This document shows, one piece after another, positions 13,776-47,220 of a stretch of 59,716 nucleotides of DNA. The notes beneath the pieces were generated by a model. That model made no database searches. It saw only the letters and a program-made list of their open reading frames with translations, and was not told the origin of the DNA. The DNA comes from a virus (taxonomy: Duplodnaviria > Caudoviricetes). Both the position numbers and the translations under genes were made by a program. Each line of letters begins with the position of its first letter. Positions within the stretch are counted from its first letter, which is position 1. The stretch spans positions 1-59,716 of IMG/VR virus record IMGVR_UViG_3300046804_002051. One strand, given 5' to 3'.

Positions 13776-13800
13776 TTTTTTTAAAATTATAAATATATAT

Positions 13801-13816
13801 TATAATATACAAAAAA
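13801..13816 (-). promoter_or_regulatory. putative late promoter TTTTTTGTATATTATA (lysis operon)
   Basis: 16-bp exact repeat of 19901-19916; both lie about 25 nt upstream of an operon start. Confidence 0.6.
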
Positions 13817-13855
13817 TAAATGAAACTACAATAGGATACTATGTATTTTTACGTA

Positions 13856-19876: not shown

Positions 19877-19900
19877 CTTTTATATTTAAGACATTAATAC

Positions 19901-19916
19901 TATAATATACAAAAAA
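19901..19916 (-). promoter_or_regulatory. putative late promoter TTTTTTGTATATTATA (fibre operon)
   Basis: exact repeat of 13801-13816. Confidence 0.6.
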
Positions 19917-19982
19917 TTTTTGAATAAAAAAAATCCCTAGAAAAAAATTTCTAAGTATCTTTTCGTTTGGAGAGTTATAGAG

Positions 19983-31821: not shown

Positions 31822-31905
31822 ATGATGATTGGAATTGTATTTCTATTATTAGGACTTATTACAGGTCTTATAATAGGTTATAATATTATGAAAAATGGTA
31901 ATTGA
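31822..31905 (+). CDS. 27-aa single-TM micropeptide (MMIGIVFLLLGLITGLIIGYNIMKNGN)
   Basis: translated by hand; overlaps the next start. Confidence 0.45.
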   Translation: MMIGIVFLLLGLITGLIIGYNIMKNGN

Positions 31906-33061: not shown

Positions 33062-33340
33062 ATGACACTCAGAGATACAGAACTTATAGGTAAAAAGCTT
33101 GTAAAGTATGGATTCTATAGATCTAATACTGATCATCAAAATTATAGACTTCCTAAAGTTGAAGGTACTATAGAGGTGCAGTTTAAAAGATTTGGAAATG
33201 TTTGGTTTGCTTTAATACTTCATGAAATAGATCTACATACTAAAGTTAAATTTGATGGTCATCAAGCTACATTTACTCCAGAAGATTTAGTAGAAGAACA
33301 TAAGAAATTACAAGCAATGTTTAAATTTTTAAGATCATGA
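33062..33340 (+). CDS. hypothetical protein
   Basis: 92-aa ORF. Confidence 0.65.
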   Translation: MTLRDTELIGKKLVKYGFYRSNTDHQNYRLPKVEGTIEVQFKRFGNVWFALILHEIDLHTKVKFDGHQATFTPEDLVEEHKKLQAMFKFLRS

Positions 33341-33744
33341 TAAAAACATTTAAGGATCCTAAAATCATGGCAATGATTAGGAATATTTGTAAGGAACATT
33401 GGGAAGTTGCAAAACCAAGTGATAGCAATATTGGATATTTATGGTATATGTATGCAGCAGGCACCAAAGTAGGAACATTCAGACCATTTATTTTTCTTGC
33501 AGAATTAAACTTGTTAGTTAAAACAGGTTACATTACTGCAGTAGAGAAAGATAATATGATTGTGATGTTGGATAGTTCAGATGAAGATAATGCTCATGTA
33601 CTTGCATATTCTATACTTACATTAAGAAAAAGTAGAATAGAGGATTTAGGATTATGGACTACTGATAATGATAAATACAGTGAAATTGATTATATTAGAG
33701 ATATTATTAATACTCAAATGTTTGTAGGACAATGGCAGAAATAA
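33337..33744 (+). CDS. hypothetical protein carrying the MLxSxDxDN motif
   Basis: MLDSSDEDNAHVLA, shared with 43029 and 45868. Confidence 0.65.
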   Translation: MIKTFKDPKIMAMIRNICKEHWEVAKPSDSNIGYLWYMYAAGTKVGTFRPFIFLAELNLLVKTGYITAVEKDNMIVMLDSSDEDNAHVLAYSILTLRKSRIEDLGLWTTDNDKYSEIDYIRDIINTQMFVGQWQK

Positions 33745-33956
33745 TTTTAAAATTCCAAGAAGATGAACTTGATGATGCTAGAACTGCATTAGATGGTTAT
33801 AAATGGAAGGGTGCTATGTGGGATCTTGATCAATGGCTTAGAGGTGAGATAAAGTATAATGAAAAATTATCTGCAGAAACAGATAGAGCTTATCAAGCTG
33901 TTAGAGATAAGATCCGGGAAATTTTAAATGATGACAACCTAAATATAGAATCATGA
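33732..33956 (+). CDS. conserved-looking phage hypothetical protein
   Basis: ALDGYKWKGAMWDLDQWLRGEIKY. Confidence 0.65.
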   Translation: MAEIILKFQEDELDDARTALDGYKWKGAMWDLDQWLRGEIKYNEKLSAETDRAYQAVRDKIREILNDDNLNIES

Positions 33957-34045
33957 AAGAGTTAGTTGAAATTGTTGATGTACTTTGTGTTACAGTAGTA
34001 GTACTATTTTTTATGTATGGTGTTTATAAAGTATTAATGGATTAG
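33953..34045 (+). CDS. 30-aa single-TM micropeptide
   Basis: MKELVEIVDVLCVTVVVLFFMYGVYKVLMD; ATGA overlap; fills the gap. Confidence 0.5.
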   Translation: MKELVEIVDVLCVTVVVLFFMYGVYKVLMD

Positions 34046-34046
34046 T

Positions 34047-34229
34047 ATGGAATGTATTAAATGCGGAGCTCCGGCAACTAAAAGGTATAGTCCTGATCTT
34101 GATATCAAAGGTATAGGAATGTGTGCTGAGCATACAGATGAGATTATGATAGATCTTATGGTAGCTCAGTTTGATAAAAGAGGCTGGGAGAAGTTTGAGA
34201 AAAAGTATTTACCTAAAAAAGATAAGTAA
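34047..34229 (+). CDS. small Zn-finger protein
   Basis: CIKC ... CAEH. Confidence 0.6.
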   Translation: MECIKCGAPATKRYSPDLDIKGIGMCAEHTDEIMIDLMVAQFDKRGWEKFEKKYLPKKDK

Positions 34230-34324
34230 TGGAATTTGTAATTGGAGCAGTTATAGTAGTTATAATTGCAGGTTTAATAATTTATAACTTAAAAGATGAA
34301 AACTATCATAACTGGGATGATTGA
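34229..34324 (+). CDS. 31-aa single-TM micropeptide
   Basis: MEFVIGAVIVVIIAGLIIYNLKDENYHNWDD; TAATG coupling. Confidence 0.5.
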   Translation: MEFVIGAVIVVIIAGLIIYNLKDENYHNWDD

Positions 34325-34374
34325 TTGTATGTTTACAGCCATCATCAGTATTGTTTATAGAAATATTGATTAAT

Positions 34375-35274
34375 ATGATAACTGTAGAAGTATTATCTAA
34401 AAAATTAAATATTGCTGACATAAGAACTGTTAAGCAAATACTAGCAAATAAAGAACTTTCTGAAGAAATTGCAAAAAGAGATGTAATATCTGAAAGAAAG
34501 TTGGTGGAGGAATATCAAATTCCTCAGAGCCATTTAAGAAATCTGAAACAAAAAAATAAAATATCTTATTTCTGTACTACAGGTGAATTAAATAAAAGTA
34601 GTAGAGGATCTAAAGCTTATTATTTTGTAGATGAAGTTCAAGAAATATTTGGATATAATATTAAGTATAACAAATCATTAGTATTTAAGCATAACATATT
34701 TAATAAACTAATGGTAGATTTATCTAAGGAGTTTTGTACAAATAGGGAATCCAGATTATTAGAAATGTTACTTGTACAAAATCTATCAGTAGAAGAAATT
34801 GCTTATGAAGAAGGTGTGGGTGTTGTTAGAGCAAATGATATGATTAATAAAGCTCATAGAAGAGTACTTAGTAAGATTTATAGTCTTAAAAAAATGTTTG
34901 CTGAATGGCCTAATGAACTAGCTTATAAAACTGAAAATCAGTTACTTAAAAAACAAAATACAGAATTGTATCATAAGTTTTTAAGAAATAAAAAAAACAA
35001 AGAAGCTAAAGATTATTTGTCTCAAGATGCTGTTCAACACTTTATTAAATATGGATATGATCTTAAAGATTTAGATAAACCTATTATAGATTTTGATTTA
35101 TCTGTAAGAGCTCTTAATGGGTTAAAAAGTATAGAAATTGAAAAGCTTGAAGACTTGCTATCTTATAGTAAACATGATCTTTATTGTATAAGGAATATGG
35201 GTGATAAGAGTATAAGAGAAATCTGTGATTGGTTAGAAGATACTTATAATTGGAAATTAAAAATTAAGAATTAA
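34375..35274 (+). CDS. transcription regulator: excisionase-like HTH + sigma70 region-4-like HTH + RNA polymerase alpha-CTD
   Basis: C-terminal FDLSVRALNGLKSIEIEKLEDLL ... IRNMGDKSIREI is an alpha-CTD; TNRESRLLEM ... SVEEIA is sigma4-like; ATG at 34375 preferred to TTG at 34321. Confidence 0.75.
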   Translation: MITVEVLSKKLNIADIRTVKQILANKELSEEIAKRDVISERKLVEEYQIPQSHLRNLKQKNKISYFCTTGELNKSSRGSKAYYFVDEVQEIFGYNIKYNKSLVFKHNIFNKLMVDLSKEFCTNRESRLLEMLLVQNLSVEEIAYEEGVGVVRANDMINKAHRRVLSKIYSLKKMFAEWPNELAYKTENQLLKKQNTELYHKFLRNKKNKEAKDYLSQDAVQHFIKYGYDLKDLDKPIIDFDLSVRALNGLKSIEIEKLEDLLSYSKHDLYCIRNMGDKSIREICDWLEDTYNWKLKIKN

Positions 35275-35278
35275 TGAG

Positions 35279-35530
35279 ATGACAGAACAAGAATTAATAG
35301 ATCTTGGCTTTGATAGAGTAGATATACTTGATGATGAAAGCCAAAATGGATATGATTACTATTACTATCATAAAGAGTTATGTTCTGGAGTACTTTTACA
35401 TAGTACAGATAATATTGATGTTGTAGGTGATAAATGGGCTTTAAAATCATTTGAGATTCCGGCATTAAATATTATAGATAAAGAACATTATGATCATTTT
35501 CTTGAAATAATGAACAATATAACTTGTTAA
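35279..35530 (+). CDS. hypothetical protein
   Basis: 83 aa; MTEQELIDLGF phage-type start. Confidence 0.65.
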   Translation: MTEQELIDLGFDRVDILDDESQNGYDYYYYHKELCSGVLLHSTDNIDVVGDKWALKSFEIPALNIIDKEHYDHFLEIMNNITC

Positions 35531-35886
35531 GTATGTTTAGTGGAAAGTTTATAAAGAAAGATGGCAAACTTGTATTTGCTCATCCTCAAGACAAACTGTC
35601 TTATGAAATCTTTCTAGAAAAGATACCAGAAGGTCAAAAAGTAGATATGTATTTAGATCTGGCAAATACAGATCATAGTAAAGCACAACTTGCAAAAGTA
35701 CATGCTTGTATTAGAGAATTAGCAAAAGAATCTGGTTACACTTTTGATGAAATGAAACTTGTAGTAAAACAAGCTTCAGGACTTGAAGGTAAGTCTTTTG
35801 CAGATTGTAGTAAAGATGATTTGATGTTAGCTATAGAAGCTTGTATACAAATAGGTAAAGAACAATTTAATCTTTCTCTGGAGTAG
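35524..35886 (+). CDS. NinB/Orf-like recombination mediator
   Basis: SKAQLAKVHACIRELAKESGYTFDEMK ... SFADCSKDDL; start probably ATG at 35533. Confidence 0.55.
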   Translation: MLSMFSGKFIKKDGKLVFAHPQDKLSYEIFLEKIPEGQKVDMYLDLANTDHSKAQLAKVHACIRELAKESGYTFDEMKLVVKQASGLEGKSFADCSKDDLMLAIEACIQIGKEQFNLSLE

Positions 35887-36184
35887 GGTCCACATAACCT
35901 TCATCACCAGGTTCAAGAAGTTCTTTTTCTGTATATACTTTTTGTTCAGTAGCTTGTCTTTCTATTTCAGCAATAACAAGAATAATAGTATAAAAGGCAC
36001 GTTCCATTTCAGTCATGTCTTCATACTTTTGAGAAGTTATTTGTTTGATATATTCAGCACCTTTATCTTCAACATTTAAATGTTTAAGAAGAGTTATAGA
36101 AGCTGCTTTAGCCATCAAATAAAAACTTTTATTGACTTTGATGTCTAATAATACATCATCGTTTAATTCTTTTACTTTAATCAT
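35867..36184 (-). CDS. hypothetical protein, lone antisense gene
   Basis: fills a gap lacking any plus-strand ORF; own TATTTTTG promoter element at 36200-36207. Confidence 0.65.
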   Translation of the reverse strand: MIKVKELNDDVLLDIKVNKSFYLMAKAASITLLKHLNVEDKGAEYIKQITSQKYEDMTEMERAFYTIILVIAEIERQATEQKVYTEKELLEPGDEGYVDPTPEKD

Positions 36185-36216
36185 TGTACTAATTTTTATC
36201 AAAAATAAATAAAAAA

Positions 36217-36915
36217 ATGAATCTAGAAGAAATTAAACAAAAAATGTTTGATAAACTTGAACCTAGTGGCTGGGGTAGAATTTTTAAATCTTTTATATTT
36301 AGTAGTGAGTTTGATGATATACTCAAAAAACTATATACTCTAAGTCAAGAAGATAAGAGATTTACTCCACCACTAAAACAAGTATTTAGGGCCTTTGAAG
36401 AATGTCCGTATAATAAATTACAAGTGGTAATAGTGGGTCAGGATCCATATCCACAGTTAGGAGTTGCTGATGGTATTGCATTTAGTTGTGGTAACACCAA
36501 TAAACTTCAACCAAGTCTTAGATATATCTTAGAAGAAGTAAACAGAACAGTTTATAATGGTCATTCTGTAAGTGAAGATGTAAATCTTGCAAGATGGTCA
36601 AATCAAGGTATATTGATGCTTAATACAGCTCTTACAGTTGAAGTAGGTAAAATAGGTAGTCATTATGATATATGGAAACCATTTACTGCTTATCTGTTAG
36701 ATTATTTAAATAACTATAATCCCGGATTAATTTATGTGTACATGGGTAAAAAAGCTGAAGAATGGTCTGAACTTACTACCAATACTGACTATAGGTTTAC
36801 TGTTAAACATCCTGCTTCTGCTGCTTATAACGGCTCTAAATGGGATAGTAATGATATTTTTATTAAAGTATCTACTATAGTAACTAATACAAGTGGTAAT
36901 ATAATAACATGGTAG
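36217..36915 (+). CDS. ung: uracil-DNA glycosylase (family 1)
   Basis: VVIVGQDPYP, ADGIAFS, LMLNTALTV, HPAS. Confidence 0.95.
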   Translation: MNLEEIKQKMFDKLEPSGWGRIFKSFIFSSEFDDILKKLYTLSQEDKRFTPPLKQVFRAFEECPYNKLQVVIVGQDPYPQLGVADGIAFSCGNTNKLQPSLRYILEEVNRTVYNGHSVSEDVNLARWSNQGILMLNTALTVEVGKIGSHYDIWKPFTAYLLDYLNNYNPGLIYVYMGKKAEEWSELTTNTDYRFTVKHPASAAYNGSKWDSNDIFIKVSTIVTNTSGNIITW

Positions 36916-36916
36916 T

Positions 36917-37504
36917 ATGACAGAGATCTTTACTAAAGTAATTCAGAATGGTTTAACACCAAATTCTTTTTATGTTTTATACTGTATTAAGGAAAAAATA
37001 GTACCTCATAATTCAATTAACAAAGCACTTGAGTGCAAAAGGCTGCATATGGATCAGTGGTTGTCAGAATCCTTGGAATTGACAGATAAAAGCATTATCT
37101 TTATGGCAGAAATTGATGGATATTTTAAGAAATCCAAGAAGAAAACTTCTAAAGATTTAATGGGGCATAATTTTATGCAAAACATAGAGGCATATGTGAA
37201 CATATTTCCTAATAAGAAACTATCCTCTGGTAAATATGCAAGAGTTCCTGCTAAAAATCTTGAGAATGCATTTAGATGGTTCTTTGATACCTTCAATTAT
37301 AGTTGGGAAACTATCTTTTTAGCTACTCAAAAGTATGTTTTAGAATATGAATCTAAAAACTATGAATACATGAGAAACTCTCAATATTTTTTGAGAAAAC
37401 AAAATGTAGACAAAAGTTGGGATTCTGACTTAGCAACTTATTGTGAATATCTAAATGATAATCCTGATGAAGATAAAGATGTATTTAGTGAGTTAATTGT
37501 ATAA
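36917..37504 (+). CDS. putative replication initiator/helicase loader
   Basis: 195 aa directly upstream of DnaB; function inferred from position. Confidence 0.4.
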   Translation: MTEIFTKVIQNGLTPNSFYVLYCIKEKIVPHNSINKALECKRLHMDQWLSESLELTDKSIIFMAEIDGYFKKSKKKTSKDLMGHNFMQNIEAYVNIFPNKKLSSGKYARVPAKNLENAFRWFFDTFNYSWETIFLATQKYVLEYESKNYEYMRNSQYFLRKQNVDKSWDSDLATYCEYLNDNPDEDKDVFSELIV

Positions 37505-37522
37505 TTTAAATTTTTAAAGTTT

Positions 37523-38530
37523 ATGGGAAAACTATTCAATGGTGCTAGACATCTGTTACCAGTAAGTGAAAGAGATAGTCTTGAAAAGGGTCTCTACAAA
37601 ATGAAGGCAAAAAGAGAAGGTAAAATACCTGCACTAATAAGTGCTTGGCCAAAATTTAATGATGCTTTTTGTGATGGACTTGAGTGGAGAACTATAACAG
37701 TTGTTGGTGCACGTCCTGGCACAGGTAAGACACTTTTTATGGAACAGTTAGTGTCTGACATCATTGCAAAAAATCCTGACCAAGAGTTCAGGGTATTAAA
37801 ATTTCAGATGGAAATGGTTGATGAAACCAGTGCTATTAGAAAATTTGGTCTGATTACAGGTGCTGATTACAATACATTAATGAGTAAAGACGGCAAGTTA
37901 GTTGACAAAAAATTATTTGAAAAGTGTGTAGAATACTACAAATCAACTATTAATAATGATTTAATTAATGTCATCTACGATACATGTACTGTCAATGAAA
38001 TGTGTGCTACAATTCATTATGAGTTGGAAAGATACAAGAAAGAAGATGGTACTTATCCTAACATGCTTGTTACAATAGATCACTCTGCTCTATTTAAAAA
38101 TGATGTAGGACAGAAAGACAAGTTTGATATGCTAGGTGCATTGGGTGAAGCCTTGACCTATATGAAGAAAAATTATCCTGTAGCATTTGTTGTCCTAAGT
38201 CAGTTAAATAGAAATATAGATGATACTAAGAGACAAGTAGAAGCCACTTATGGTAATTATGTATTAGATTCTGACATTTATGGTTCTGATGCTTTATTAC
38301 AACATGCTGATGTAGTTATTGGTATTAATAAACCTTCTATCAGAAGAATAAAGAAATATGGTCCTGAGAAGTTCCTAATTGAAGATCCGGATACCTTAGT
38401 GTTCCACTTCCTGAAGTCACGTAATGGTCTTACAAGAATCAGTTTCTTTAAACTAGATAGAGCTACTATGAGAATAGTAGAGATACCAACTCCTGCTAGG
38501 GAGACTACACAGAAAATCCAAGTAAATTAA
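37523..38530 (+). CDS. dnaB: DnaB-like replicative helicase
   Basis: GARPGTGKT, FQMEM, TIDH, LSQLNR, GSDALLQHAD, KSRNG. Confidence 0.92.
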   Translation: MGKLFNGARHLLPVSERDSLEKGLYKMKAKREGKIPALISAWPKFNDAFCDGLEWRTITVVGARPGTGKTLFMEQLVSDIIAKNPDQEFRVLKFQMEMVDETSAIRKFGLITGADYNTLMSKDGKLVDKKLFEKCVEYYKSTINNDLINVIYDTCTVNEMCATIHYELERYKKEDGTYPNMLVTIDHSALFKNDVGQKDKFDMLGALGEALTYMKKNYPVAFVVLSQLNRNIDDTKRQVEATYGNYVLDSDIYGSDALLQHADVVIGINKPSIRRIKKYGPEKFLIEDPDTLVFHFLKSRNGLTRISFFKLDRATMRIVEIPTPARETTQKIQVN

Positions 38531-38536
38531 TAAATT

Positions 38537-39217
38537 ATGAATAATAACAATTTAAGAAAAGAAAAAGAAAGAGAGTTCTATATGCAGCATATGGACACTT
38601 TCAAAGCAATTGGATTAGCAGATCCATTCTTTACAATTAAAACTGCTTTCTTTAAGAAAGGTAAGTTTGGTAAACAGTGTCAATTCTTTGAGTGGGAGTT
38701 GAAGAAAGGTGAGGATATCTACATTGAGTTCTATGAGAACGTGTATGATGGCTCTGGAAGAAACACTGATATTGTTCCAGGAATGGAAGGTAGACCATTG
38801 TTTAAGTTAAAGTACAATCCTTTTTATCATGAGGAGTATGATGTTACAGAAACTGTTGATGCAGATGGAAAAGTAGATAGAAAATATCTAGTTTCTCTTG
38901 GTGAGATGGTTGCTGTTCTTCCTACTGGACAAGAGATTAGCTATGCTCTTTATGAAAAGAGAAAAGAAGAATCTAAACTTGAGGTTCCTGCATTACAACA
39001 ATCATTGAGTGTATTTCCAGATTTTGAGGCAGAGTATGCTCCTAAAGTAGAGGAAATTGAAATTGATGTACCTGCTGTAGAAGAAAATACAGAATTTACT
39101 GGAGGTTCTTTAGCAAACATATCTTTAAAAGATTTTGCAGCAATCATGCTTGTAAAACCTGTAAGTGATAAGAAATGGTTGAATGATTTAATAATTGAAT
39201 CAAGAAAAGACTTATGA
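38537..39217 (+). CDS. hypothetical replication-module protein
   Basis: 226 aa between DnaB and the ATPase. Confidence 0.7.
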   Translation: MNNNNLRKEKEREFYMQHMDTFKAIGLADPFFTIKTAFFKKGKFGKQCQFFEWELKKGEDIYIEFYENVYDGSGRNTDIVPGMEGRPLFKLKYNPFYHEEYDVTETVDADGKVDRKYLVSLGEMVAVLPTGQEISYALYEKRKEESKLEVPALQQSLSVFPDFEAEYAPKVEEIEIDVPAVEENTEFTGGSLANISLKDFAAIMLVKPVSDKKWLNDLIIESRKDL

Positions 39218-39933
39218 GTATAGTACTTCCAACTAAAAAAGTCAAAGCAGAAAGACAGAATCCTAAAAGAATTGTGATCTATTCTAAGCCAAAGACTGGT
39301 AAAACAACTGCATATGCAGGTCTTGATGACAATCTGATTATTGATTTAGAGAACGGTACTGATTATGTTGAAGCTCTTAAAGTTAAAGTAAGTAATCTAC
39401 AAGAACTTTTGGATACTGGTAAAGCAATCAAAGCTGCAGGTAATCCATACAAGTTTATTACTATTGATACTGTAACTGCATTAGAAGATATGATAATGCC
39501 GTTAGCTGTAAAACTTTACAGAGGAACTGCAATGGGTAAAAACTATGATGGAGACAATGTAACTACTCTTCCAAATGGTGCAGGTTATCTATATATTAGA
39601 CAAGCCTTCTTTCAGGTTTTAGATTTTATTGATACCTTAGCACCTACAATCATTCTATCTGGTCATATTAAAGATAAGGTAGTTGATGATAAAGGAGAGA
39701 TGGTCATGTCTGCAAACATAGACCTGACGGGTAAGATCAAATCATTAATTTGTGCAAATGCAGATGCTATTGGGTATATGTACCGAAAAGGTAACAAAAC
39801 TATTTTGTCTTTTAAGACTAATGAAGAGGTTACTTGTGGTGCAAGACCTGAGCATTTACGTAATGAAGAAATAGTAATTACTGAGATGATTGATGGTGTT
39901 CTAAAGACATCATGGGAAAAAGTTTTTGTTTAA
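39214..39933 (+). CDS. AAA_24/Sak4-like P-loop ATPase (recombinase)
   Basis: YSKPKTGKTT, IDLENG, ITIDTVT, LSGH, ADAIGY. Confidence 0.8.
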   Translation: MSIVLPTKKVKAERQNPKRIVIYSKPKTGKTTAYAGLDDNLIIDLENGTDYVEALKVKVSNLQELLDTGKAIKAAGNPYKFITIDTVTALEDMIMPLAVKLYRGTAMGKNYDGDNVTTLPNGAGYLYIRQAFFQVLDFIDTLAPTIILSGHIKDKVVDDKGEMVMSANIDLTGKIKSLICANADAIGYMYRKGNKTILSFKTNEEVTCGARPEHLRNEEIVITEMIDGVLKTSWEKVFV

Positions 39934-39953
39934 TAATTAAAAAGTAAAATAAA

Positions 39954-40637: not shown

Positions 40638-40645
40638 AAAAATAG

Positions 40646-40679
40646 TTAGGGGGAATCAATAGGGGTTCCCCCTAATTTT
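40646..40679 (+). terminator. intrinsic terminator
   Basis: TTAGGGGGAATC/GGTTCCCCCTAA plus TTTT. Confidence 0.75.
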
Positions 40680-40691
40680 AAATTTTAGAGT

Positions 40692-41672
40692 ATGATTTCC
40701 ACAACAACTATTGTTTCTGATTTAAACGATGTACCCAGAGAATGGGTCTTTGAACACTACCTGAAACTTACTGAAAGATTATCAGGACAGAGTCTTAAAA
40801 TCAAATCTATTTTCAGTACTAGAGATAAAGTTCCATCTATGTGTATTTATACAGATAGCCGGGGTCACTATAAGTTTAAAGATTTTTCTTCAGGCTATGG
40901 TGGTGATGGACTTAATCTTGTAATGCATTTGTATAACCTAGAAAGTAGAGGTAAAGCTTCTTTTAGAATAATGGAAGACTATGCTGTTTATATTTCTAAT
41001 AATACATATGTTCCTATTGCATATAAACCACAGAGTAAGTATGTAGTTTCTGATTATGAAATGAGACACTGGAATACACTAGATCAAGGATATTGGAGAA
41101 ATTTCAAGTTATCCTCTTCTATTTTAGAAGGTCACAATGTCTATCCTTTGTCATTTTATACAATGATTAAAGAAGATGATGAGGGTCGTATTCTAGATAC
41201 TGTACATATCAAAGCTAATTTTATTTATGGTTATTTTCGGGAAGATGGTACACTGTATAAAATCTATACTCCAAAGAACAAAGATAACAAGTTTATTAAA
41301 GTACATGATTACATACAAGGTTCTGATCAACTTGAGTTTAAATCTAAGTATCTGATTATTACTTCATCTCTGAAAGATCTAATGTGTTTTAAAAAATTGG
41401 GAATATCAGGTATTGAAACTATTGCTCCAGATAGTGAGAATAGTGTGGTACCAGAAAATTTTATGAGACCTCTTCTAGATAAGTATCAAAAGATCATTGT
41501 ATTGTTTGATAATGATGAGCCTGGACTAAAGTCTGCTCAGAAGTATAAAAACAAATATGGTTTTGAGTATATAAATTTAGATATGTCTAAAGATTTGTCA
41601 GATTCAGTAAAAGACTTTGGTGTTGAAGCTGTCAGAGATAAACTATTCCCATTATTAAAACAAGCATTATGA
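40692..41672 (+). CDS. DNA primase (TOPRIM)
   Basis: FKDFSSG; IITSSLKDLM; SEN; LFDNDEPG; KDLSD. Confidence 0.85.
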   Translation: MISTTTIVSDLNDVPREWVFEHYLKLTERLSGQSLKIKSIFSTRDKVPSMCIYTDSRGHYKFKDFSSGYGGDGLNLVMHLYNLESRGKASFRIMEDYAVYISNNTYVPIAYKPQSKYVVSDYEMRHWNTLDQGYWRNFKLSSSILEGHNVYPLSFYTMIKEDDEGRILDTVHIKANFIYGYFREDGTLYKIYTPKNKDNKFIKVHDYIQGSDQLEFKSKYLIITSSLKDLMCFKKLGISGIETIAPDSENSVVPENFMRPLLDKYQKIIVLFDNDEPGLKSAQKYKNKYGFEYINLDMSKDLSDSVKDFGVEAVRDKLFPLLKQAL

Positions 41673-42094
41673 GTTGGACCTATAAAGGAAAACAATTTGA
41701 GGAATTAGATATTCCTGCAGGAGCCGTAGGGTTTATTTATATTATGACTGCTATCATAGATGGTAAATCAGTTGCTTACATAGGAAAGAAGAACTTCTTT
41801 GCTAATATCAAGAGACCTCTTGGTAAAAAAGCACTGGCCATGTCTACTGATAAAAGGTTAAAAAAGTACAAGCGGGAACTGAAACCTGACTTTATGAGAT
41901 ATTACAGTAGTAATAAAGTTCTTAAAGATGCTCACAAAGCTGGAGTACCTATCAAAAGAGAAATTCTTAGGATATGTAGTACTCAGATGGAGCTCACATA
42001 TCAGGAGACTAAACATCAGTTCTTGTATGAAGTACTTGAGAAAGAAGAATTCCTAAATGGAAATATTCTAGGTAGGTTTTACAAAATCAAATAA
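41669..42094 (+). CDS. GIY-YIG nuclease (T4 endonuclease II/Seg-like)
   Basis: GFIYIMT ... AYIGKK ... YYSS ... KREIL ... E ... NGNI. Confidence 0.75.
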   Translation: MSWTYKGKQFEELDIPAGAVGFIYIMTAIIDGKSVAYIGKKNFFANIKRPLGKKALAMSTDKRLKKYKRELKPDFMRYYSSNKVLKDAHKAGVPIKREILRICSTQMELTYQETKHQFLYEVLEKEEFLNGNILGRFYKIK

Positions 42095-42095
42095 T

Positions 42096-42500
42096 ATGAC
42101 AGAATTAGAATTAACAAGCCTCCTATTTAGGTTGGCTGATTTTGGTATTACAGGTGTTAAAGTAAAATATGATGGTGGAGGAGACTCAGGTGCCATAGAA
42201 TGGATAGGTTATACAAAAAAACCTTGTGAAACTCCAGAAGATGTAGATGATAATGTAGAAGATTGGGCAGATGAATGGAATTTAGCAAAACTTGATCAAG
42301 ATCTTTATTATGAAATTGAAAAATTTTCAGAATCTAAACTTCTTGATGAAATAGAAGATTGGTGGAATAATGAAGGTGGTTGGGGAGAATTGTCTATTTG
42401 TGTTCCTTCAGGTAAATATCAAATTACTAATAATATTAGAATTACTGATCATGAAACATATAATCATGAAGGTAGTATTCTAGATAAAGCAGAAGAGTAA
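42096..42500 (+). CDS. DUF6878-like protein
   Basis: VKYDGGGDSGAIE ... WWNNEGGWGEL. Confidence 0.65.
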   Translation: MTELELTSLLFRLADFGITGVKVKYDGGGDSGAIEWIGYTKKPCETPEDVDDNVEDWADEWNLAKLDQDLYYEIEKFSESKLLDEIEDWWNNEGGWGELSICVPSGKYQITNNIRITDHETYNHEGSILDKAEE

Positions 42501-42682
42501 TGGAAGATTTTGAAAGATGGTTAATTGATGAGTTGGAAACTCAAACATTAACAGATGAGTTAAAAGATGAAATACTTGAAAGAGTAAGAGAATTGCATGA
42601 AGATGCTCAGAGTGAAGGATATAGTGAGGGATATAGTGAAGCTAAACATGAAATTATTGATCACATAACATACAAAATGTAA
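42500..42682 (+). CDS. small acidic protein
   Basis: 19 D/E in 60 aa; EGYSEGYSE repeat. Confidence 0.6.
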   Translation: MEDFERWLIDELETQTLTDELKDEILERVRELHEDAQSEGYSEGYSEAKHEIIDHITYKM

Positions 42683-43029
42683 TGGCACATCCTTGGCAAC
42701 ATGCAAAATCATCAGTTAAGAAGTTTGGAGGGTCTCCTGTAGATTATCTAGCAATACATAACTGGTTTGATGAAACTAAGGCCTGGGTAGGTCATAGTAT
42801 GCACAGAATGTTTAGACATCATAGTGAAGGTATATTTGAATGTGAGCAAAGATTTGGTATGGTAATTACCAACTCTGATGGTAAAGATGTATATGTAAGA
42901 TATGTTGGTGAGCAGCATGTCAAGGAAGATTGTAATAATTATATCCCTACTGCAAAAGAATGGATAGATATGATTGAATCTGGTAAGCCTGAGAAATGGG
43001 CAATAAAAACATTAAAAATTGAAGACTGA
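42682..43029 (+). CDS. DUF6915-like His-rich protein
   Basis: MAHPWQHAKSS ... IHNWFDETK ... HRMFRHHSEG ... EQHVKED. Confidence 0.7.
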   Translation: MAHPWQHAKSSVKKFGGSPVDYLAIHNWFDETKAWVGHSMHRMFRHHSEGIFECEQRFGMVITNSDGKDVYVRYVGEQHVKEDCNNYIPTAKEWIDMIESGKPEKWAIKTLKIED

Positions 43030-43436
43030 TGATTTTTAACAAAGAAGAAACAAAAAACTTAATTATGATGCTTCAATCTCAAGATGCAGACAATCATGTT
43101 GTTGCATTTGAGGCATTGAAAAATGTAGATTTTAAAAAGTATATAGGAGAGCTATTAGTACTTTATAAGTTTGGTGGACATACATTAAACAATTGGCAAG
43201 TAAACTGTAAAAAAGCAGCTACCAAACTAGATAAGATCTTAGATCAAAGTACACTTAGTAGTCCTAAAACTTTAGCCTTAATTACACAACACAAAGGTTC
43301 TAAAGCTTCGGTTGAGCTATTTATGGAATTCTTTATTAGAGATATGTCAAGGATGTTAGAATCCATTGGCTATCCTACAGATAAATTTGAAATAAACATT
43401 AAATTTAAAGATGATGGACAAACAACAGAGTCTTAG
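43029..43436 (+). CDS. hypothetical helical protein with MLxSxDxDN motif
   Basis: MLQSQDADNHVVA; overlaps the vWA gene. Confidence 0.65.
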   Translation: MIFNKEETKNLIMMLQSQDADNHVVAFEALKNVDFKKYIGELLVLYKFGGHTLNNWQVNCKKAATKLDKILDQSTLSSPKTLALITQHKGSKASVELFMEFFIRDMSRMLESIGYPTDKFEINIKFKDDGQTTES

Positions 43437-44592
43437 TAAAATTGGTAAAGAGCTAATGTTGAAAGAGCCCTTTTATGGGTTCTTTCTTATTGCTCTAAAT
43501 AAAATCTGGGGTAATAAGATACCAACTGCCGGGGTTAGTAAGAATGGTATTAATTATCAGCTCTTTATTAATACTGAATTTTGGGAAAGTCTTAGTGATA
43601 ACCACAGACTTGGATTATTGAAACATGAATTGCTTCATATTGCATTTGGACATCTTACAACTTTCTTTAAGTTTAGTGATAAGAGACTTGCAAATGTTGC
43701 AATGGATATGGAAATCAATCAGTATATATCTAAAGAATGGCTACCAGAAGGTGGTATTGATATAGATAATTATGAAGATCTTAATCTTGAAAGAAAAGCA
43801 GGTTGTAGATATTATTATGACAAGCTAAAAGAACTTCAGGATAAAAAGAAACAGAACGGTACTTGTGGAAATCAACCTATGGATAATTTGTTGGATGCTA
43901 TAGAAAATGGTGAGACAGATGATCATGCAACATGGGAAGAGTTTGAAGACATGACGGAAGCTGAGAAAAAGTTAATTGAGAAACAATTACAGAAAGTTCT
44001 TGGTGATGCTAAAGATCAGACTATTAAGAAGAAAGGTAATGTTCCTGGAGAGATTGAAGCAGTAATTATTATAGAAGAAGTTACTAAACAAAAATTTAAT
44101 TGGCGGAATCATATCAGAAGATTTACAGGTGTAAGTACAAAAGTATTTACTAAGAAAATCAGAAGAAAAGAGAACCGTAGATTTAGTGACAATCCGGGTC
44201 TAAAAGTAAAAATGAGACAACATATGTTGTTGGCCATAGATACTTCAGGATCTGTAAGTGATAATGAGCTCAAAGAATTTATGAGTGAAATCTATCACAT
44301 CTATAAATGTGGTGTAGACATTACTGTAGTACAATGTGATACAAGAATCAGATCAATTGAACCTTACAAAGGTAAATTTGAGATGGCTATACAAGGTAGA
44401 GGTGGAACTGAATTTGATCCCGTCCTAGAATATTTTAATGCAAACCTGAAGAAATATACAAGCCTGGTGTATTTTACTGATGGAGAATGTGGTTATTCTG
44501 TAAAACCTAGAGGTAATACTCTATGGGTTTTGTCAGAACAATCTTATATGAATGAAGAGTTACCGGGTAAAGTTATTAAATTAGAATTATAA
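43411..44592 (+). CDS. metallopeptidase-vWA protein (DUF2201 type)
   Basis: LKHELLH, NVAMDMEINQ, AIDTSGS (MIDAS), GRGGTEF, YFTDG. Confidence 0.88.
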   Translation: MMDKQQSLSKIGKELMLKEPFYGFFLIALNKIWGNKIPTAGVSKNGINYQLFINTEFWESLSDNHRLGLLKHELLHIAFGHLTTFFKFSDKRLANVAMDMEINQYISKEWLPEGGIDIDNYEDLNLERKAGCRYYYDKLKELQDKKKQNGTCGNQPMDNLLDAIENGETDDHATWEEFEDMTEAEKKLIEKQLQKVLGDAKDQTIKKKGNVPGEIEAVIIIEEVTKQKFNWRNHIRRFTGVSTKVFTKKIRRKENRRFSDNPGLKVKMRQHMLLAIDTSGSVSDNELKEFMSEIYHIYKCGVDITVVQCDTRIRSIEPYKGKFEMAIQGRGGTEFDPVLEYFNANLKKYTSLVYFTDGECGYSVKPRGNTLWVLSEQSYMNEELPGKVIKLEL

Positions 44593-44603
44593 AAATTAGT
44601 GTT

Positions 44604-45773
44604 ATGAGTCAAGTACAATTAAATGTTAATGAGTTAAAGGATTTTATTAAACATATGGTTAAGAATAACCAGCATATTCAGTCTGAAGGTAAAGTACCTG
44701 TGGCTATTAATATTGAAGGTGATGCAGGTTTGGGTAAAACTTCTGCTATCATGCAGTTAGGTAAAGAAATGAACATGGATGTTGTAAAGCTGAATTTATC
44801 TCAGCTGGAAGAATTAGGTGACTTAGTTGGGTTTCCTGTAAAAGAATTTCAGATACAAAATGCAGAAGGTAAAACCAAATGGATTGGTGAGGCACAAGTA
44901 AATATGGCTCTTCATAAAGGGTTTAAAGTTGTTGGAAAGAGAATGTCCCATGCTGCTCCTGAGTGGATACAAGGTAAAGGTGAAGGTGGTTTCTTGATTC
45001 TTGATGACTATACTCGTGCCGATGCAAGATTTATGCAGGCAACTATGGAAATCTTAGATAGACAAGAATATGTTTCTTGGAAGCTACCTAAGAATTGGCA
45101 TGTTATCTTGACTACTAATCCAGACAATGGTGACTATAATGTAACTAGTCTTGACGTAGCTCAGAAAACAAGATTTATCTCTGTTGAGTTAAAGTATGAT
45201 TCTGATGTTTGGGCTAAGTGGGCAGAAAAAGCAAACATAGATGGTAGATGTATTAACTTTATGTTGATGCATCCAGAATTGGTTAACCAAAGAGTTAATC
45301 CAAGATCTATCACTACATTCTTTAATGCTATTAGTTCTGTACCTAAGTTTGAAGATAGCCTACCACTAATTCAGATGATTGGTGAGGGTTCTGTTGGTGT
45401 AGACTTTAGTTCAATGTTTACTATGTTCATTAACAATAAACTTGACCGAATTATTAGTCCTGAAGACATCTTGACCAAAGATGAGCAGTATGTTATGAAC
45501 TCTCTTACTAATGCAGTAGGAAAAGATGATGAGTTCCGTGCTGATATATCTAGTGTCATTGCAACAAGGGTAATTAACTATTCTCTTGCTTTGGCTGACA
45601 AAGGTTCAGTTGGTAAACCAATCATTGACAGGATAGCTAAACTTACTACTGATTGTGCAGCATTCACTGATGACCTTAGATACTATATGGTCAAAGAGAT
45701 TGTCAACGGTAATAAAGTTAAGTTTAGTCAGTTGATGATGAATCAAGACGTGGTGAAGATGGCTGTAAAATAA
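44604..45773 (+). CDS. MoxR-like AAA+ ATPase
   Basis: EGDAGLGKT, LILDDYTRA, LTTNP, TRF, NPRS. Confidence 0.88.
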   Translation: MSQVQLNVNELKDFIKHMVKNNQHIQSEGKVPVAINIEGDAGLGKTSAIMQLGKEMNMDVVKLNLSQLEELGDLVGFPVKEFQIQNAEGKTKWIGEAQVNMALHKGFKVVGKRMSHAAPEWIQGKGEGGFLILDDYTRADARFMQATMEILDRQEYVSWKLPKNWHVILTTNPDNGDYNVTSLDVAQKTRFISVELKYDSDVWAKWAEKANIDGRCINFMLMHPELVNQRVNPRSITTFFNAISSVPKFEDSLPLIQMIGEGSVGVDFSSMFTMFINNKLDRIISPEDILTKDEQYVMNSLTNAVGKDDEFRADISSVIATRVINYSLALADKGSVGKPIIDRIAKLTTDCAAFTDDLRYYMVKEIVNGNKVKFSQLMMNQDVVKMAVK

Positions 45774-45829
45774 GTCAACATAGAAGGGTTCCCCTTTAAA
45801 AAAACACTAGTCTAATTAAAAACAATGAT

Positions 45830-45855
45830 AAGGGGAGGTAATACTCCCCTTTATT
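45830..45855 (+). terminator. hairpin terminator
   Basis: AAGGGGAG/CTCCCCTT plus T-rich tail. Confidence 0.65.
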
Positions 45856-45867
45856 AAATTTTAAAAT

Positions 45868-47220
45868 ATGAAAACATACTTGCATATTTTTGATATAGAA
45901 GCAGATGATAACGAGCTAATCATAAAGGTAGAACCTTTATATTGTGCTGAAGGAAGTGCATATTCATTTAATGTTACTCCTAATGATTATAATCCTACAA
46001 AAGGAGATAAATTGTATTTTCTACCAGGGGTTAATATTCCCAGAGTAAAACTTAAAGACTTGTCTCTACAACACGGTATTAAAACTGTAAGAGATGTAGA
46101 CCAAGCAACACATGTCTTTGTTGGTAAGAATACTAAAGATAAGATTGTAAATGGTCATTGGTATTATACAATGAATACTTCAGCTCTTAGAGCTATTCTT
46201 AATGATCCTGAGCTTGTAATGGATGATTATTATAAAGAAAATCTTACACAGGCTTTAGAGTTTTATACAGAACCAATTGTTATTGTAGATTATCATTCAG
46301 CAAGTGAATTAAGAAATTCAGAACTACCATTTGTAAAAAGATATATGATTGGTAATTTATCTAGATCATCAACTATATTTTATACTGTAGATGATGATCA
46401 CAAAGATTTATTTCCGGGTATTTTGAATCTAGAGCTTTATGATGAAAGTAAATTACTTAAACATATTAATGGTGATGATGCTGCTACTATAGATGAGACT
46501 ATGTTTCTGCAGATTTCTGATATGTTTAAGAGCTCAGATCAAGACAATCATATTCTTGCAATGGAGATTATGGCCAATTGTAATTATATTGACAGCCTCC
46601 TATATATAGAGATGTTGTTTGAAAAATATGAAAATCAGATGTATAGTTGTCATACTAAAAACCATGTGAATTTCAAGTCTTTACTTAGCTTTTTAGGTAA
46701 AAAGAGAACATACATGAATACTAGCATTGATGATGTTGTCAAGTCTCTTATAAATAAAGGAGTATTTGATATAGACAAAGTAAATGTCATTATGAAATAT
46801 TATGGTGAAGCAATTGCCAATCAAGGAGGTACTGATTATTTTGAAGTAAAAAGTTTAACTCTTAGTGAAGAAGCTGCAAAACTACTCAATACTAACTATG
46901 TTCATCAGACCTTCCCAGATTTTATTCCTGAAAGTGGTATAGAGGTTCCTGAAATACATGGAAACCTTGATGATTTAAACTGTGCAGAAATCATTTCTGC
47001 AGATTTGCCAGGGGAAAATGATGATGATATTATTTCTGATGAAGACATAGAAGAAGCATTTACTAGAATTGAGAGAAATGAACTCAAGTCAGAGTTAATA
47101 GCATTAGAAGAGGAAAAACAGGGTCCTAAAATAGAGACAAATAAAGAACCTGAGCCTGAAGAGGAAATAGATAATAATCAAACAACACAAACTAAAGATG
47201 ATGACTTTGAATGGTTCTGA
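45868..47220 (+). CDS. hypothetical protein with BRCT-like N-terminal segment, MFxSxDxDN motif and acidic tail
   Basis: KLYFLPG ... RVKLKDL ... GIKTVRDVDQATHVFVG; MFKSSDQDNHILA. Confidence 0.55.
   Translation: MKTYLHIFDIEADDNELIIKVEPLYCAEGSAYSFNVTPNDYNPTKGDKLYFLPGVNIPRVKLKDLSLQHGIKTVRDVDQATHVFVGKNTKDKIVNGHWYYTMNTSALRAILNDPELVMDDYYKENLTQALEFYTEPIVIVDYHSASELRNSELPFVKRYMIGNLSRSSTIFYTVDDDHKDLFPGILNLELYDESKLLKHINGDDAATIDETMFLQISDMFKSSDQDNHILAMEIMANCNYIDSLLYIEMLFEKYENQMYSCHTKNHVNFKSLLSFLGKKRTYMNTSIDDVVKSLINKGVFDIDKVNVIMKYYGEAIANQGGTDYFEVKSLTLSEEAAKLLNTNYVHQTFPDFIPESGIEVPEIHGNLDDLNCAEIISADLPGENDDDIISDEDIEEAFTRIERNELKSELIALEEEKQGPKIETNKEPEPEEEIDNNQTTQTKDDDFEWF

Follow-up and report, generated by a model that had tools for sequence, protein, structure and literature searches.

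A conserved helical hairpin in three phage proteins, two of which flank a MoxR/metallopeptidase-vWA gene pair

The motif, its carriers and the genes between them

The window, i.e. the whole stretch of DNA that was analysed, comprises 59,716 bases. The regular expression M[LF].S.D.DN, run on its six-frame translation, gave three matches and none elsewhere, each in a real gene on the plus strand: MLDSSDEDNAHVLA begins at 33565 within the gene at 33337-33744 (protein A135), MLQSQDADNHVVA at 43068 within the gene at 43029-43436 (B135), and MFKSSDQDNHILA at 46522 within the gene at 45868-47220 (C450). Thus all three strings lay where the original prediction had placed them. The looser pattern S.D.DN added one match in the six-frame translation of the window, at 37077 on the minus strand, opposite the gene at 36917-37504. 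A 40-column HMM of the segment found the three genes with E values of 1e-20 to 1e-22 (next-best ORF, 0.07), and the profile of alignment A7 had the same three sites as its sole matches in the record. Judged from the sequence, this threefold occurrence is far beyond chance.

Conservation in homologs had been set beforehand as a test of the original prediction. Among the homologs listed, the strict motif was kept in 347 of 360 (C450, 120/120; B135, 116/120; A135, 111/120); the sharing of the motif by three proteins is real. S and D are invariant in all carrier families in alignment A7. In the B135 superfamily, evaluated with 123 full-length representatives of clusters at 50% identity, the motif supplied the well-occupied columns with the highest information (S 97.6%, M 94%, D 93%, N 85%).

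A135 (33337..33744, plus strand) is a 135-residue orphan protein recognised from its ORF and sequence. Its hairpin module, as we call the segment around the motif, spans residues ~67-107 (DNA 33535-33657, plus strand; motif from 33565). No Pfam or PHROG family matched A135, and 131 homologs were found at E<=1e-3 among 136 scored.

B135 (43029..43436, plus strand), also of 135 residues, is all-helical, with seven helices in its AlphaFold model (pLDDT 87.6), the first two of which form the hairpin module (DNA 43038-43157, plus strand; motif at 43068). Its start codon is overlapped by the stop codon of a DUF6915 gene (42682..43029, plus strand; Pfam DUF6915, 4.4e-40), which precedes B135 in 69 of 80 related loci, and its 3' end overlaps the start of the vWA gene by 26 nt. 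The B135 superfamily comprises 246 cluster representatives at E<=1e-3.

That B135 and C450 flank a metallopeptidase-vWA gene of the DUF2201_N/DUF2201 type and a MoxR gene, as had been claimed, agrees with the Pfam and PHROG matches. The metallopeptidase-vWA protein (43411..44592, plus strand) is of the N4 gp25 type and has both HExxH and a full MIDAS; it matches Pfam DUF2201 (6.2e-17), DUF2201_N (2.6e-13) and phrog_1314 (4.6e-68), and in 30 sequences H72, E73, H76, D277, S279, S281 and D357 are invariant and T333 is kept in at least 90%. The MoxR-like AAA+ ATPase (44604..45773, plus strand) is of the N4 gp24 type (phrog_1297, 2.4e-34); its matches to Pfam AAA_3, AAA and AAA_5 are all below the cut-offs of these models. 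Of 64 relatives, 50 have GDAGLGKT as Walker A. Walker B is hhhhDD, not DE, in 56 of the 64, and this exchange may slow ATP turnover.

A terminator-like G+C hairpin with a T-rich tail, found by inspection of the sequence and by scan, follows the MoxR stop and precedes the C450 start (45830..45851, plus strand). C450 itself (45868..47220, plus strand) is a multidomain protein of 450 residues (AlphaFold pLDDT 73.8). A BRCT-like region assigned from structure matches (residues ~42-203, DNA 45991-46476, plus strand) is followed by a helical domain (residues ~205-320, DNA 46480-46827, plus strand) that opens with the hairpin module (DNA 46492-46611, plus strand; motif at 46522), and by a disordered acidic tail (residues 342-450, DNA 46891-47217, plus strand; pLDDT below 50 from 342) that ends in FxWF, with F447, W449 and F450 invariant. 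This acidic, aromatic-ended tail recalls the acidic C-terminal tails of SSB and T7 gp2.5. The end of C450 overlaps by 23 nt the start of a PD-(D/E)XK exonuclease gene (47198..48211, plus strand; Pfam PDDEXK_1, 5.4e-10; phrog_412, 3.7e-21), and the two genes overlap in all 74 loci that have both.

The carriers had been described as otherwise unrelated. For A135 this stands: it has only the hairpin (~24-26 columns) in common with the B135 and C450 families. For B135 and C450 it does not, since they are paralogous over a whole domain. Profile-profile comparison with hhalign aligned B135 with C450 residues 215-317 (probability 86.5%, E 4.5e-6, 95 columns), the family HMMs cross-matched in divergent relatives (A3 on B135-like proteins, E 1e-5 to 3e-8; A1 on C450-like proteins, 6e-8), and the AlphaFold models show seven helices each in identical order. 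By these three lines of evidence B135 duplicates, as a separate protein, the helical domain in the centre of C450.

Fold and distribution of the hairpin

The original prediction had spoken of a HEAT-like helical hairpin, and AlphaFold models, structure matches and profile matches back a hairpin of the HEAT/armadillo type. In the models of B135 and C450 the motif makes the turn in a helix-turn-helix hairpin, with S, D and N at the end of helix 1 and in the first turn of helix 2. ARM/HEAT proteins match C450 residues 202-284 at Z 5-6, the closest named clusters in the ESM Atlas are HEAT_2, HEAT_PBS and Arm, and in designed armadillo-repeat proteins the module profile finds one match in each 42-residue repeat, every time by way of the same LLxSxDxE residues. 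The Pfam Arm and HEAT models gave no match to the hairpin proteins at E<=1. We read the module as one solitary armadillo/HEAT-type unit of ~30 residues, laid out as a hydrophobic helix, M-[LF]-x-S-x-D-x-[DE]-N, and a helix with a conserved Ala.

The module profile gave 22 matches in five of five complete or near-complete relatives of 112-126 kb. Ten of these lie in ORFs outside the three families: ORFs of 82-119 aa have the module at their C-terminal end, ORFs of 262 and 347 aa have it internally, and a 546-aa Dda-like helicase (phrog_325, 5.4e-80) bears it at the N-terminus. A further family of ~110-137-aa proteins has the module at its end in at least 12 loci. The presence of a ~30-residue hairpin at the ends of other proteins in these ~120-kb relatives makes it a portable module, and in this respect the claim that the hairpin is reusable held, with the Dda-like helicase and small proteins among its bearers. 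Most extra carriers have no recognisable function. The three carriers of the window sit in the early/replication arm, with helicase, primase, SSB-like, UDG and polymerase genes nearby.

Gene order and the possible partner of the hairpin

Even in very divergent relatives the order B135, zincin-vWA, MoxR, C450, exonuclease is fixed. Of 80 loci found via C450, all 80 had MoxR, 79 had vWA and 73 had B135, and B135 overlapped the vWA start in 66 of the 73. Divergent B135-like genes (26-34% mutual identity) immediately precede vWA in 13 of 15 loci, the remaining two terminating at the B135-like gene itself, and a module-bearing C450-like gene follows MoxR in all eight divergent loci that extend that far. 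The gap between MoxR and C450 is 40-100 nt in 79 of the 80 close loci, and these ORFs touch or overlap in divergent relatives. In the same divergent loci vWA and MoxR were matched at E values of 1e-130 to 1e-200 whereas B135 and C450 reached 1e-10 to 1e-40, a difference that a fixed engine served by rapidly evolving adaptors would be expected to show.

The carriers found all come from a single uncultured phage lineage, which has the entire primase-to-exonuclease block in common. Co-occurrence is therefore inseparable from descent, and the conserved order may be inheritance, not function. Within the lineage no complete genome with the module but without the pair, or with the pair but without the module, was found; the two records without vWA are 57-62% complete. 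A135 and most extra carriers lie kilobases away from the pair. C450, set off from MoxR by the terminator-like hairpin in the subgroup of the window, is coupled to the exonuclease gene instead, which also speaks against a tie to the pair. The B135 and C450 hairpins of one genome showed no co-variation: of 80 such pairs, 76 keep the difference of ML versus MF, and at the second acidic position the pairs are D/D in 47, E/D in 28 and other in 5.

A tentative interpretation, somewhat short of an even chance in our estimate, is that the hairpin is a lineage-specific coupling adaptor comparable to the effector-associated domains (EADs), the small, mostly alpha-helical coupling domains of bacterial ternary MoxR-vWA systems (PMC7159879). 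In B135 and C450 it forms the first two helices of a common helical domain of ~110 residues; in A135, and in the Dda-like helicase and small coiled-coil proteins of complete relatives, the hairpin alone is grafted onto the N- or C-terminus. Such a portable protein-protein coupling module could link a set of early and replication proteins with a single shared partner, the likeliest hub being a machine of the N4 gp24/gp25 type, i.e. the MoxR AAA+ ATPase with its zincin-vWA adaptor and intact MIDAS. In every relative examined B135, upstream, is translationally coupled to this machine and C450 lies downstream of it; the two could be its variable "third component", with the hairpin acting as EADs do. 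If the hairpin binds, it could do so by hairpin-to-hairpin contact or by its acidic turn reaching the MIDAS metal. We infer that it probably mediates binding of some kind; that its partner is the MoxR/vWA pair is considerably more doubtful. The role of a docking or client tag for MoxR-vWA, as originally predicted, is hinted at by its sole basis, the gene neighbourhood, which is strictly kept within one lineage. If true, this would be a tagging system for the phage MoxR-vWA machine.

Alternatively, and rather unlikely, the motif could be nothing but the structural signature of a well-packed armadillo/HEAT-type helix-turn-helix, without a common partner. B135 and C450 would then share it because they are paralogs, the other carriers including A135 would have gained it through small duplications or convergence on one capping solution, and its position beside MoxR/vWA would be the inherited order of a conserved replication module. 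The ARM/HEAT structural neighbours with HEAT_2/Arm nearest in the ESM Atlas, the LLxSxDxE match at every designed repeat, the synteny of the entire block and the hairpins that do not co-vary all agree with this; capping and packing could explain much of the conservation, since the invariant S, D and N sit at the helix-helix turn of the models and match the designed-armadillo consensus. Yet purely structural turns usually accept swaps among S, T, D, N and G, and here S and M are the best-kept columns although the family drifted to ~25-35% identity. Moreover, the ~30-residue unit stands alone at the ends of proteins that are not related, a setting in which two helices cannot make up a repeat stack, and convergence on nine ordered positions in at least ten families of one lineage is unlikely.

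It is also unlikely that the hairpin tags proteins for a replisome or recombination hub independent of MoxR/vWA. C450 would be the scaffold, with its BRCT-like domain, helical domain and acidic tail with aromatic C-terminus, and contact would be made from hairpin to hairpin or from hairpin to helical domain, unless the hub is a host protein. Residues 42-204 of C450 are aligned in 17 of 50 structure-match rows, 13 of which name BRCT (Z 3.0-4.9). The disordered tail with its invariant FxWF end, the constant overlap with the exonuclease gene, the helicase among the extra carriers and the location of the three window carriers fit a hub of this kind, as does the terminator-like hairpin, which separates C450 from MoxR in the subgroup of the window. 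However, the minimal carrier B135 has its coupling with the vWA gene rather than with a replication enzyme, C450 resembles BRCT domains weakly, with no Pfam BRCT match in 31 family members at E<=1, and the functions of most extra carriers are not recognisable.

In MoxR partners such as CbbO, the MIDAS site makes contact with an acidic client residue. A client tag or degron, in which the acidic turn S-x-D-x-[DE]-N is a ligand of the vWA MIDAS metal and tagged early proteins are unfolded by MoxR and cleaved by the fused zincin for timed removal or maturation, would suit the invariant acidic residues in an exposed turn, the invariant or nearly invariant MIDAS (DxSxS, T, D) and HExxH, and the peptidolytic processing that Iyer et al. 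proposed for the phage pair (PMC7824862), but it is very improbable: in B135 and C450 the hairpin makes up the first two helices of a folded domain and is thereby buried, five of five other phages have the pair without such a tag, and the DD of Walker B may mean slow turnover.

Comparison with known systems

Like the BRCT scaffolds of DNA repair (XRCC1, Rad4/TopBP1, Brc1, Mdb1), with which it aligns over 64-80 residues, C450 is built like a scaffold from several domains and is encoded among genes of DNA metabolism; unlike in these, the likeness is by structure only and an insertion lies inside the domain. With armadillo/HEAT repeats the hairpin shares the helix-turn-helix geometry and the spacing of the junction in designed armadillo repeats, but the phage carriers hold one motif copy per protein without a tandem array, in several of them as a solitary unit at a terminus.

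The system had been called undescribed. For the pair itself this is not so: N4 gp24/gp25, MoxR and metallopeptidase-vWA, belong as a pair to the core gene set of the N4-like phages (PMC4193335, Table 3). For jumbo phages of group 2.2 Iyer et al. (2021) describe the pair as chaperone and co-chaperone (PMC7824862). The MoxR and vWA genes of the window are members of these families (PHROGs 1297 and 1314), adjacent and in a replication/middle-gene region. In LUZ7, Vibrio D517, Moorella MTATph1 and PBS1 the order is ATPase then vWA, whereas in the window it is vWA then ATPase. The flanking hairpin proteins were found only in the lineage of the window: the module is absent at E<=0.01 from five of five whole records with the pair (these four and Alteromonas AD45-P4). 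In other phages the pair adjoins Dda-like or DNA helicase genes, which fits the tag-bearing Dda-like helicase here, and in LUZ7 and Vibrio D517 it adjoins DNA polymerase genes.

The comparison with the EADs extends as far as the description by Kaur, Burroughs, Iyer and Aravind (2020, eLife 9:e52696; PMC7159879), where an EAD occurs once on a MoxR-vWA core component and again on other proteins, at their N- or C-terminal ends, and where homotypic contact is predicted only. The systems described there are bacterial conflict islands, not phage systems; their vWA proteins carry C-terminal effectors instead of an N-terminal zincin, and their VMAP-C or iSTAND component is absent here. The phage unit is an armadillo-type hairpin of ~30 residues, and whereas EAD copies tend to be closest to their neighbours, the neighbouring B135 and C450 hairpins are not each other's closest relatives. 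In both, however, a small non-enzymatic alpha-helical unit has one copy beside the MoxR-vWA pair and extra copies at the termini of proteins encoded nearby or elsewhere in the genome, and in both the engine is well conserved while the accessory components are quick to diverge.

The shared motif and the proteins that carry it

The motif M[LF]xSxDx[DE]N is real and well beyond chance. It lies in three long + strand ORFs, encoding A135 (135 aa, 33337-33744), B135 (135 aa, 43029-43436) and C450 (450 aa, 45868-47220), at exactly the positions named in the original prediction. In a six-frame translation of the window, M[LF].S.D.DN matched three times. An HMM of the 40-column segment found the three genes with E-values of about 1e-20 to 1e-22, the next match in the window having an E-value of 0.07. 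A7, a profile of 27 segments of the ~30-residue helix-turn-helix module around the motif, matched the same three places and none else in the record. When the three proteins were compared pairwise with BLASTP, the 18-32 aligned residues all lay around the motif. No Pfam or PHROG family was found for A135, B135 or C450.

Metagenomic homologs at E<=1e-3 numbered 1,848 among 8,000 scored for C450, 307 of 311 for B135 and 131 of 136 for A135. The motif proved to be conserved in them: among the matches listed, its strict form was present in 120/120 C450, 116/120 B135 and 111/120 A135 homologs. A search of 1.84 billion cluster representatives with A1, the profile of the B135 alignment, yielded 246 proteins at E<=1e-3, nearly all 125-150 aa long. 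Across 123 full-length representatives of the B135 family, the most informative well-occupied columns were those of the motif, with S at 97.6%, M at 94%, D at 93% and N at 85%; these outrank the later Trp, Ala and Gly-Tyr. The motif is the best-conserved part of this family. Throughout the carrier families S and D never vary, and at least 90% keep N.

The three proteins had been taken to be otherwise unrelated. For A135 this is correct, as it has just 23-26 columns, the hairpin only, in common with B135 or C450. B135 and C450, by contrast, are paralogs over a shared domain. Profile-profile comparison aligned B135 residues 10-107 with C450 residues 215-317 (probability 86.5%, E 4.5e-6, 95 columns). 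Among divergent relatives the two HMMs match across families: that of C450 found B135-like proteins at E 1e-5 to 3e-8, and that of B135 found C450-like proteins at 6e-8. The AlphaFold models agree, with helices at 5-16, 20-30, 35-49, 53-59, 61-71, 78-87 and 92-112 in B135 (pLDDT 87.6) and at 210-221, 225-237, 244-260, 262-265, 267-276, 287-296 and 302-318 in C450 (pLDDT 73.8, good to about residue 340). Together these results indicate that B135 is a stand-alone copy of the C450 central domain.

The module is also reusable, as had been proposed, since in relatives it also occurs in ORFs that belong to none of the three families. A7 found 22 matches in five of five relatives of 112-126 kb. Twelve of these were B135-, C450- or A135-like; the other ten lay at the C-terminal end of 82-119-aa ORFs, internally in ORFs of 262 and 347 aa, and in a Dda-like helicase. 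In the latter, a 546-aa ORF, the hairpin occupies residues 30-50, and the rest of the protein matches SF1 helicases of the Dda-like kind (Pfam AAA_19 4.1e-23, phrog_325 5.4e-80). A scan of IMG/VR with a degenerate DNA pattern revealed a family of ~110-137-aa proteins ending in the module, at no fewer than 12 loci. The scan gave at least 120 stretches; of 80 loci retrieved from it, 73 carried the module by HMM and seven were chance matches. Among 16 loci from the longest contigs, 14 had any HMM match, all with families of this lineage. Within +-10 kb of C450 or A135 (160 loci) the carriers belonged to the three families only. In what full-text literature searches on crAss-like phages, HEAT repeats and phage MoxR-vWA systems returned, no description of the hairpin or of its companions B135 and C450 was found.

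Fold of the hairpin

In the models of B135 and C450 the motif joins two helices, taking in the last part of the first, a turn of three residues and the beginning of the second. A structure comparison independent of Foldseek aligned C450 residues 202-284 with AP-1/AP-2/AP-3, beta-catenin, importins, a VHS domain and further ARM/HEAT proteins (Z 5.0-6.0, rmsd 2.4-3.6, 60-84 aligned residues), Z-scores of a size that is common for helical models by arrangement alone. The matches of B135 were weaker and mixed, with RapI at the top (Z 5.0) and ARM proteins at Z 3.6-4.5 (residues 1-77). Searched against PDB sequences, A7 matched two designed armadillo proteins, 4rv1_A (E 1.8e-8) and 4hxt_A (5.4e-5), through the stretch LVKLLTSTDSE of every 42-residue repeat; single stretches score weakly, at 2-4 bits. 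These matches show the LLxSxDxE-type junction motif of armadillo repeats. In the ESM Atlas the nearest named clusters to B135 were HEAT_2, HEAT_PBS and Arm (scores 0.91-0.93), which is a lead rather than proof; A135 had no usable match there.

Several other searches for this fold were negative. Pfam Arm, HEAT, HEAT_2 and HEAT_PBS gave no match at E<=1 in the three window proteins, 31 C450 relatives and 42 divergent B135 relatives. Foldseek against the PDB returned nothing at E<=1e-3 for the B135 and C450 models, and PDB sequence-profile searches gave no match for A3 (the C450 HMM) and one each, at E>1, for A1 and A2. Tandem repetition of the unit was not found in the window, where each carrier has one significant module.

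The HEAT-like hairpin of the original prediction is upheld by the helix-turn-helix models and by the matches of A7 to designed armadillo proteins; the structure matches to ARM/HEAT proteins are compatible with it. The module is a solitary armadillo/HEAT-type hairpin that resembles one repeat unit. Because Pfam Arm and HEAT do not match and the motif occurs once per protein, we withhold formal membership in these families.

The invariant residues sit where the two helices meet, and their conservation could in part reflect helix capping. We regard a purely structural explanation of the motif as a tentative possibility. We consider it fairly probable that the hairpin is an interaction module with a common partner.

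Some other assignments were discarded. An EF-hand reading of S-x-D-x-D-N...E fails, since in the models helix 2 already begins near position 4 of the supposed loop and the Glu at position 12 is missing in A135 and in the divergent B135 relatives. JGI names B135 relatives 'DNA-directed RNA polymerase subunit F', which Pfam does not back up, and Sigma70_r1_1 matched only 4/42 B135 relatives (best E 0.0014); we treat both as noise. The match of A7 to STAM1 (3f1i_S, E 0.052) is attributed to chance.

The MoxR/vWA pair and its neighbourhood

B135 and C450 flank a metallopeptidase-vWA gene (43411-44592, +; DUF2201_N/DUF2201, Pfam above cut-off) and the gene of a MoxR-like AAA+ ATPase (44604-45773, +; phrog_1297 2.4e-34; Pfam AAA_3 0.0017 and AAA_5 0.019, both below cut-offs). 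The former encodes a DUF2201_N HExxH metallopeptidase (zincin) fused to a DUF2201 MIDAS vWA, the architecture of N4 gp25, and both the HExxH and the full MIDAS (D277, S279, S281, T333, D357) are conserved in 30 sequences. By tblastn the vWA protein is present in 274 phage records. The MoxR protein has an intact Walker A; its Walker B reads hhhhDD instead of the usual DE in 56/64 relatives, from which it may be a slow or regulated ATPase.

All 80 loci found via C450 contained MoxR, 79 contained vWA and 73 B135, in constant order and strand; many of these loci end inside the block. B135-like genes with a mutual identity of 26-34% lie directly upstream of vWA in 13/15 loci, the other two ending there, and in divergent relatives a module-bearing C450-like gene follows MoxR in 8/8 loci reaching that far. 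Across the same loci vWA and MoxR gave E-values of 1e-130 to 1e-200, as against 1e-10 to 1e-40 for B135 and C450. The pattern is that of a fixed engine with fast-evolving companions. The companions also occur in tandem: two B135-like genes at L083 (5103-5973) and L246 (1420-2258), and two C450-like genes at L090 (8935-11206).

B135 overlaps the start of vWA in 66/73 loci. In the other 7/73 (L019, L029, L010, L032, L070, L071, L074) 820-1,300 extra bases separate the two genes, which may represent an inserted mobile gene. In the window's subgroup a hairpin rich in G+C and followed by a T-rich tail (45830-45851) lies between MoxR and C450; in divergent relatives the MoxR and C450-like ORFs abut. 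This hairpin is one of two similar G+C-rich hairpins (AGGGG...CCCCT) with T-rich tails, the other at 40644-40677, both at gene-block boundaries of the replication arm. C450 overlaps the PD-(D/E)XK exonuclease gene (47198-48211, +) in 74/74 loci.

The record, from an uncultured virus, is linear, with 59,716 bases, about 50% complete according to CheckV and without a terminal repeat; relatives with terminal repeats measure 112-126 kb. On the - strand it encodes a crAss-type major capsid protein (1171-2790; Pfam Crass_capsid 1.5e-30). A 1,991-aa protein (53171-59146, -), whose sole Pfam match is one LysM, lies next to this capsid gene; in size it is reminiscent of the RNA polymerases that crAss-like and N4-like phages package in their virions. 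The - strand structural arm also contains a 47-nt AT-rich direct repeat sharing TATAATATACAAAAAAT (13778-13824 and 19878-19924, both intergenic), which may be a phage promoter motif. The + strand early/replication arm encodes an SF2 helicase, UDG, a DnaB-like helicase, an AAA_24 ATPase, a Toprim primase, GIY-YIG and a family B polymerase. The early region includes a radical-SAM protein of the spore-photoproduct-lyase family (31895-32761, +; Pfam SPL 5.2e-24). A 317-aa protein (34321-35274, +) ends in the C-terminal domain of the bacterial RNA polymerase alpha subunit (Pfam RNA_pol_A_CTD 2.6e-17, residues 248-306); it might serve the phage as a decoy for factors that bind the alpha-CTD, or recruit them. 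The whole block of GIY, DUF6878, DUF6915, B135, vWA, MoxR, C450 and exonuclease is found on L309, a contig of 117,852 bases that was binned with a Chitinophagaceae MAG, which gives a weak hint at a Bacteroidota host. In the GenBank phage collection, from which records of this genome or close to it are possibly absent, blastn with 43029-47220 and tblastn with C450 both found nothing.

Possible partners and comparison with known systems

The neighbourhood suggests the MoxR/vWA machine as the common partner of the hairpin, and we regard this as a tentative possibility. Every carrier found belongs to one lineage, and thus the synteny may be a matter of inheritance. The link is further weakened by other phages that have the pair: at E<=0.01, A7 found no module anywhere in the full-length records of five of them (LUZ7, Alteromonas AD45-P4, Vibrio D517, Moorella MTATph1 and PBS1), while the same search matched five of five relatives. 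In the window's subgroup the hairpin at 45830-45851 splits MoxR from C450, which overlaps the exonuclease gene instead. Likewise, the module hairpins of B135 and C450 have family-specific forms (ML vs MF in 76/80 loci) and show no within-genome co-variation at the D/E position. A complex prediction of B135 (A1, residues 1-127) with the full zincin-vWA (alignment A6) and Mg scored 0.01 against a mark of 0.32, a result that does not bear on binding either way.

The partner of the hairpin may instead be a replisome or recombination hub, a reading that we consider slightly less probable and that several features of C450 and its neighbours favour. In a second-look structure comparison, 17/50 rows aligned with C450 residues 42-204 and 13 of them name BRCT domains (Z 3.0-4.9; best Mdb1 4.9, Brc1 4.3, XRCC1 3.6); Pfam BRCT had no match at E<=1 in 31 C450 relatives. 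The evidence that this region is BRCT-like is weak but consistent. Residues 342-450 are predicted to be disordered and acidic, a linker of about 100 residues ending in an invariant FxWF (F-[ED]-W-F, 47206-47217), which looks like a separate docking tail. Acidic tails with an aromatic end are also known from SSB and T7 gp2.5. Taken with the coupling to the exonuclease and the hairpin-tagged helicase, these features of C450 suggest that the proteins act in DNA metabolism. The ATPase-vWA pair itself adjoins a helicase gene, Dda-like or DNA helicase, in LUZ7, Vibrio D517 and Moorella MTATph1, with a DNA polymerase gene following in LUZ7 and Vibrio D517.

If the MoxR/vWA machine were the partner, the hairpin might be an address label for a machine of the N4 gp24/gp25 type, in which MoxR and the zincin remodel or clip tagged early proteins. 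This seems a rather remote prospect to us. The invariant acidic turn would engage the MIDAS of the vWA, or the helical domain of B135 and C450 would capture the hairpins of other proteins. The MoxR ATPase and the fused zincin could then remodel or clip the Dda-like helicase, the BRCT-like scaffold and the small coiled-coil proteins. If true, the label would amount to a first code of client recognition, and with it a first functional handle, for a pair that belongs to the conserved core of N4-like phages and that many jumbo and marine phages also possess. In this lineage two fast-evolving companions are tied to the pair, and a helicase and other early proteins share a short, mutable tag; these provide concrete candidate partners. 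Whether or not the pair is its hub, a solitary armadillo-type hairpin of ~30 residues in ten or more phage protein families would be a compact natural docking unit.

The original prediction called this an undescribed phage protein-remodelling system. For the pair this does not apply. In N4-like phages, gp24 and gp25 (vWFA) of N4 count among the core genes and are middle transcripts (PMC4193335), and Iyer et al. report a MoxR and metallopeptidase-vWA pair in group 2.2 jumbo phages, for which they proposed a role in virion assembly with proteolytic processing (PMC7824862).

The closest parallel to the module comes from the bacterial MoxR-vWA ternary systems and their effector-associated domains (EADs), which, as described by Kaur et al. 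(PMC7159879), likewise combine a fixed engine with fast-evolving companions. By this analogy, B135 and C450 would be true components of the MoxR/vWA machine. Similar to an EAD, the module is a small, non-enzymatic, helical unit, found on the two proteins flanking the pair and at the termini of other proteins. Homotypic EAD-EAD contact is itself a prediction (PMC7159879). Unlike EADs, the adjacent copies of B135 and C450 are not each other's closest, as their ML and MF forms and the lack of D/E co-variation show. Three elements of types known before come together here, namely a unit of the armadillo type, a putative coupling like that by EADs, and the pair N4 gp24/gp25.
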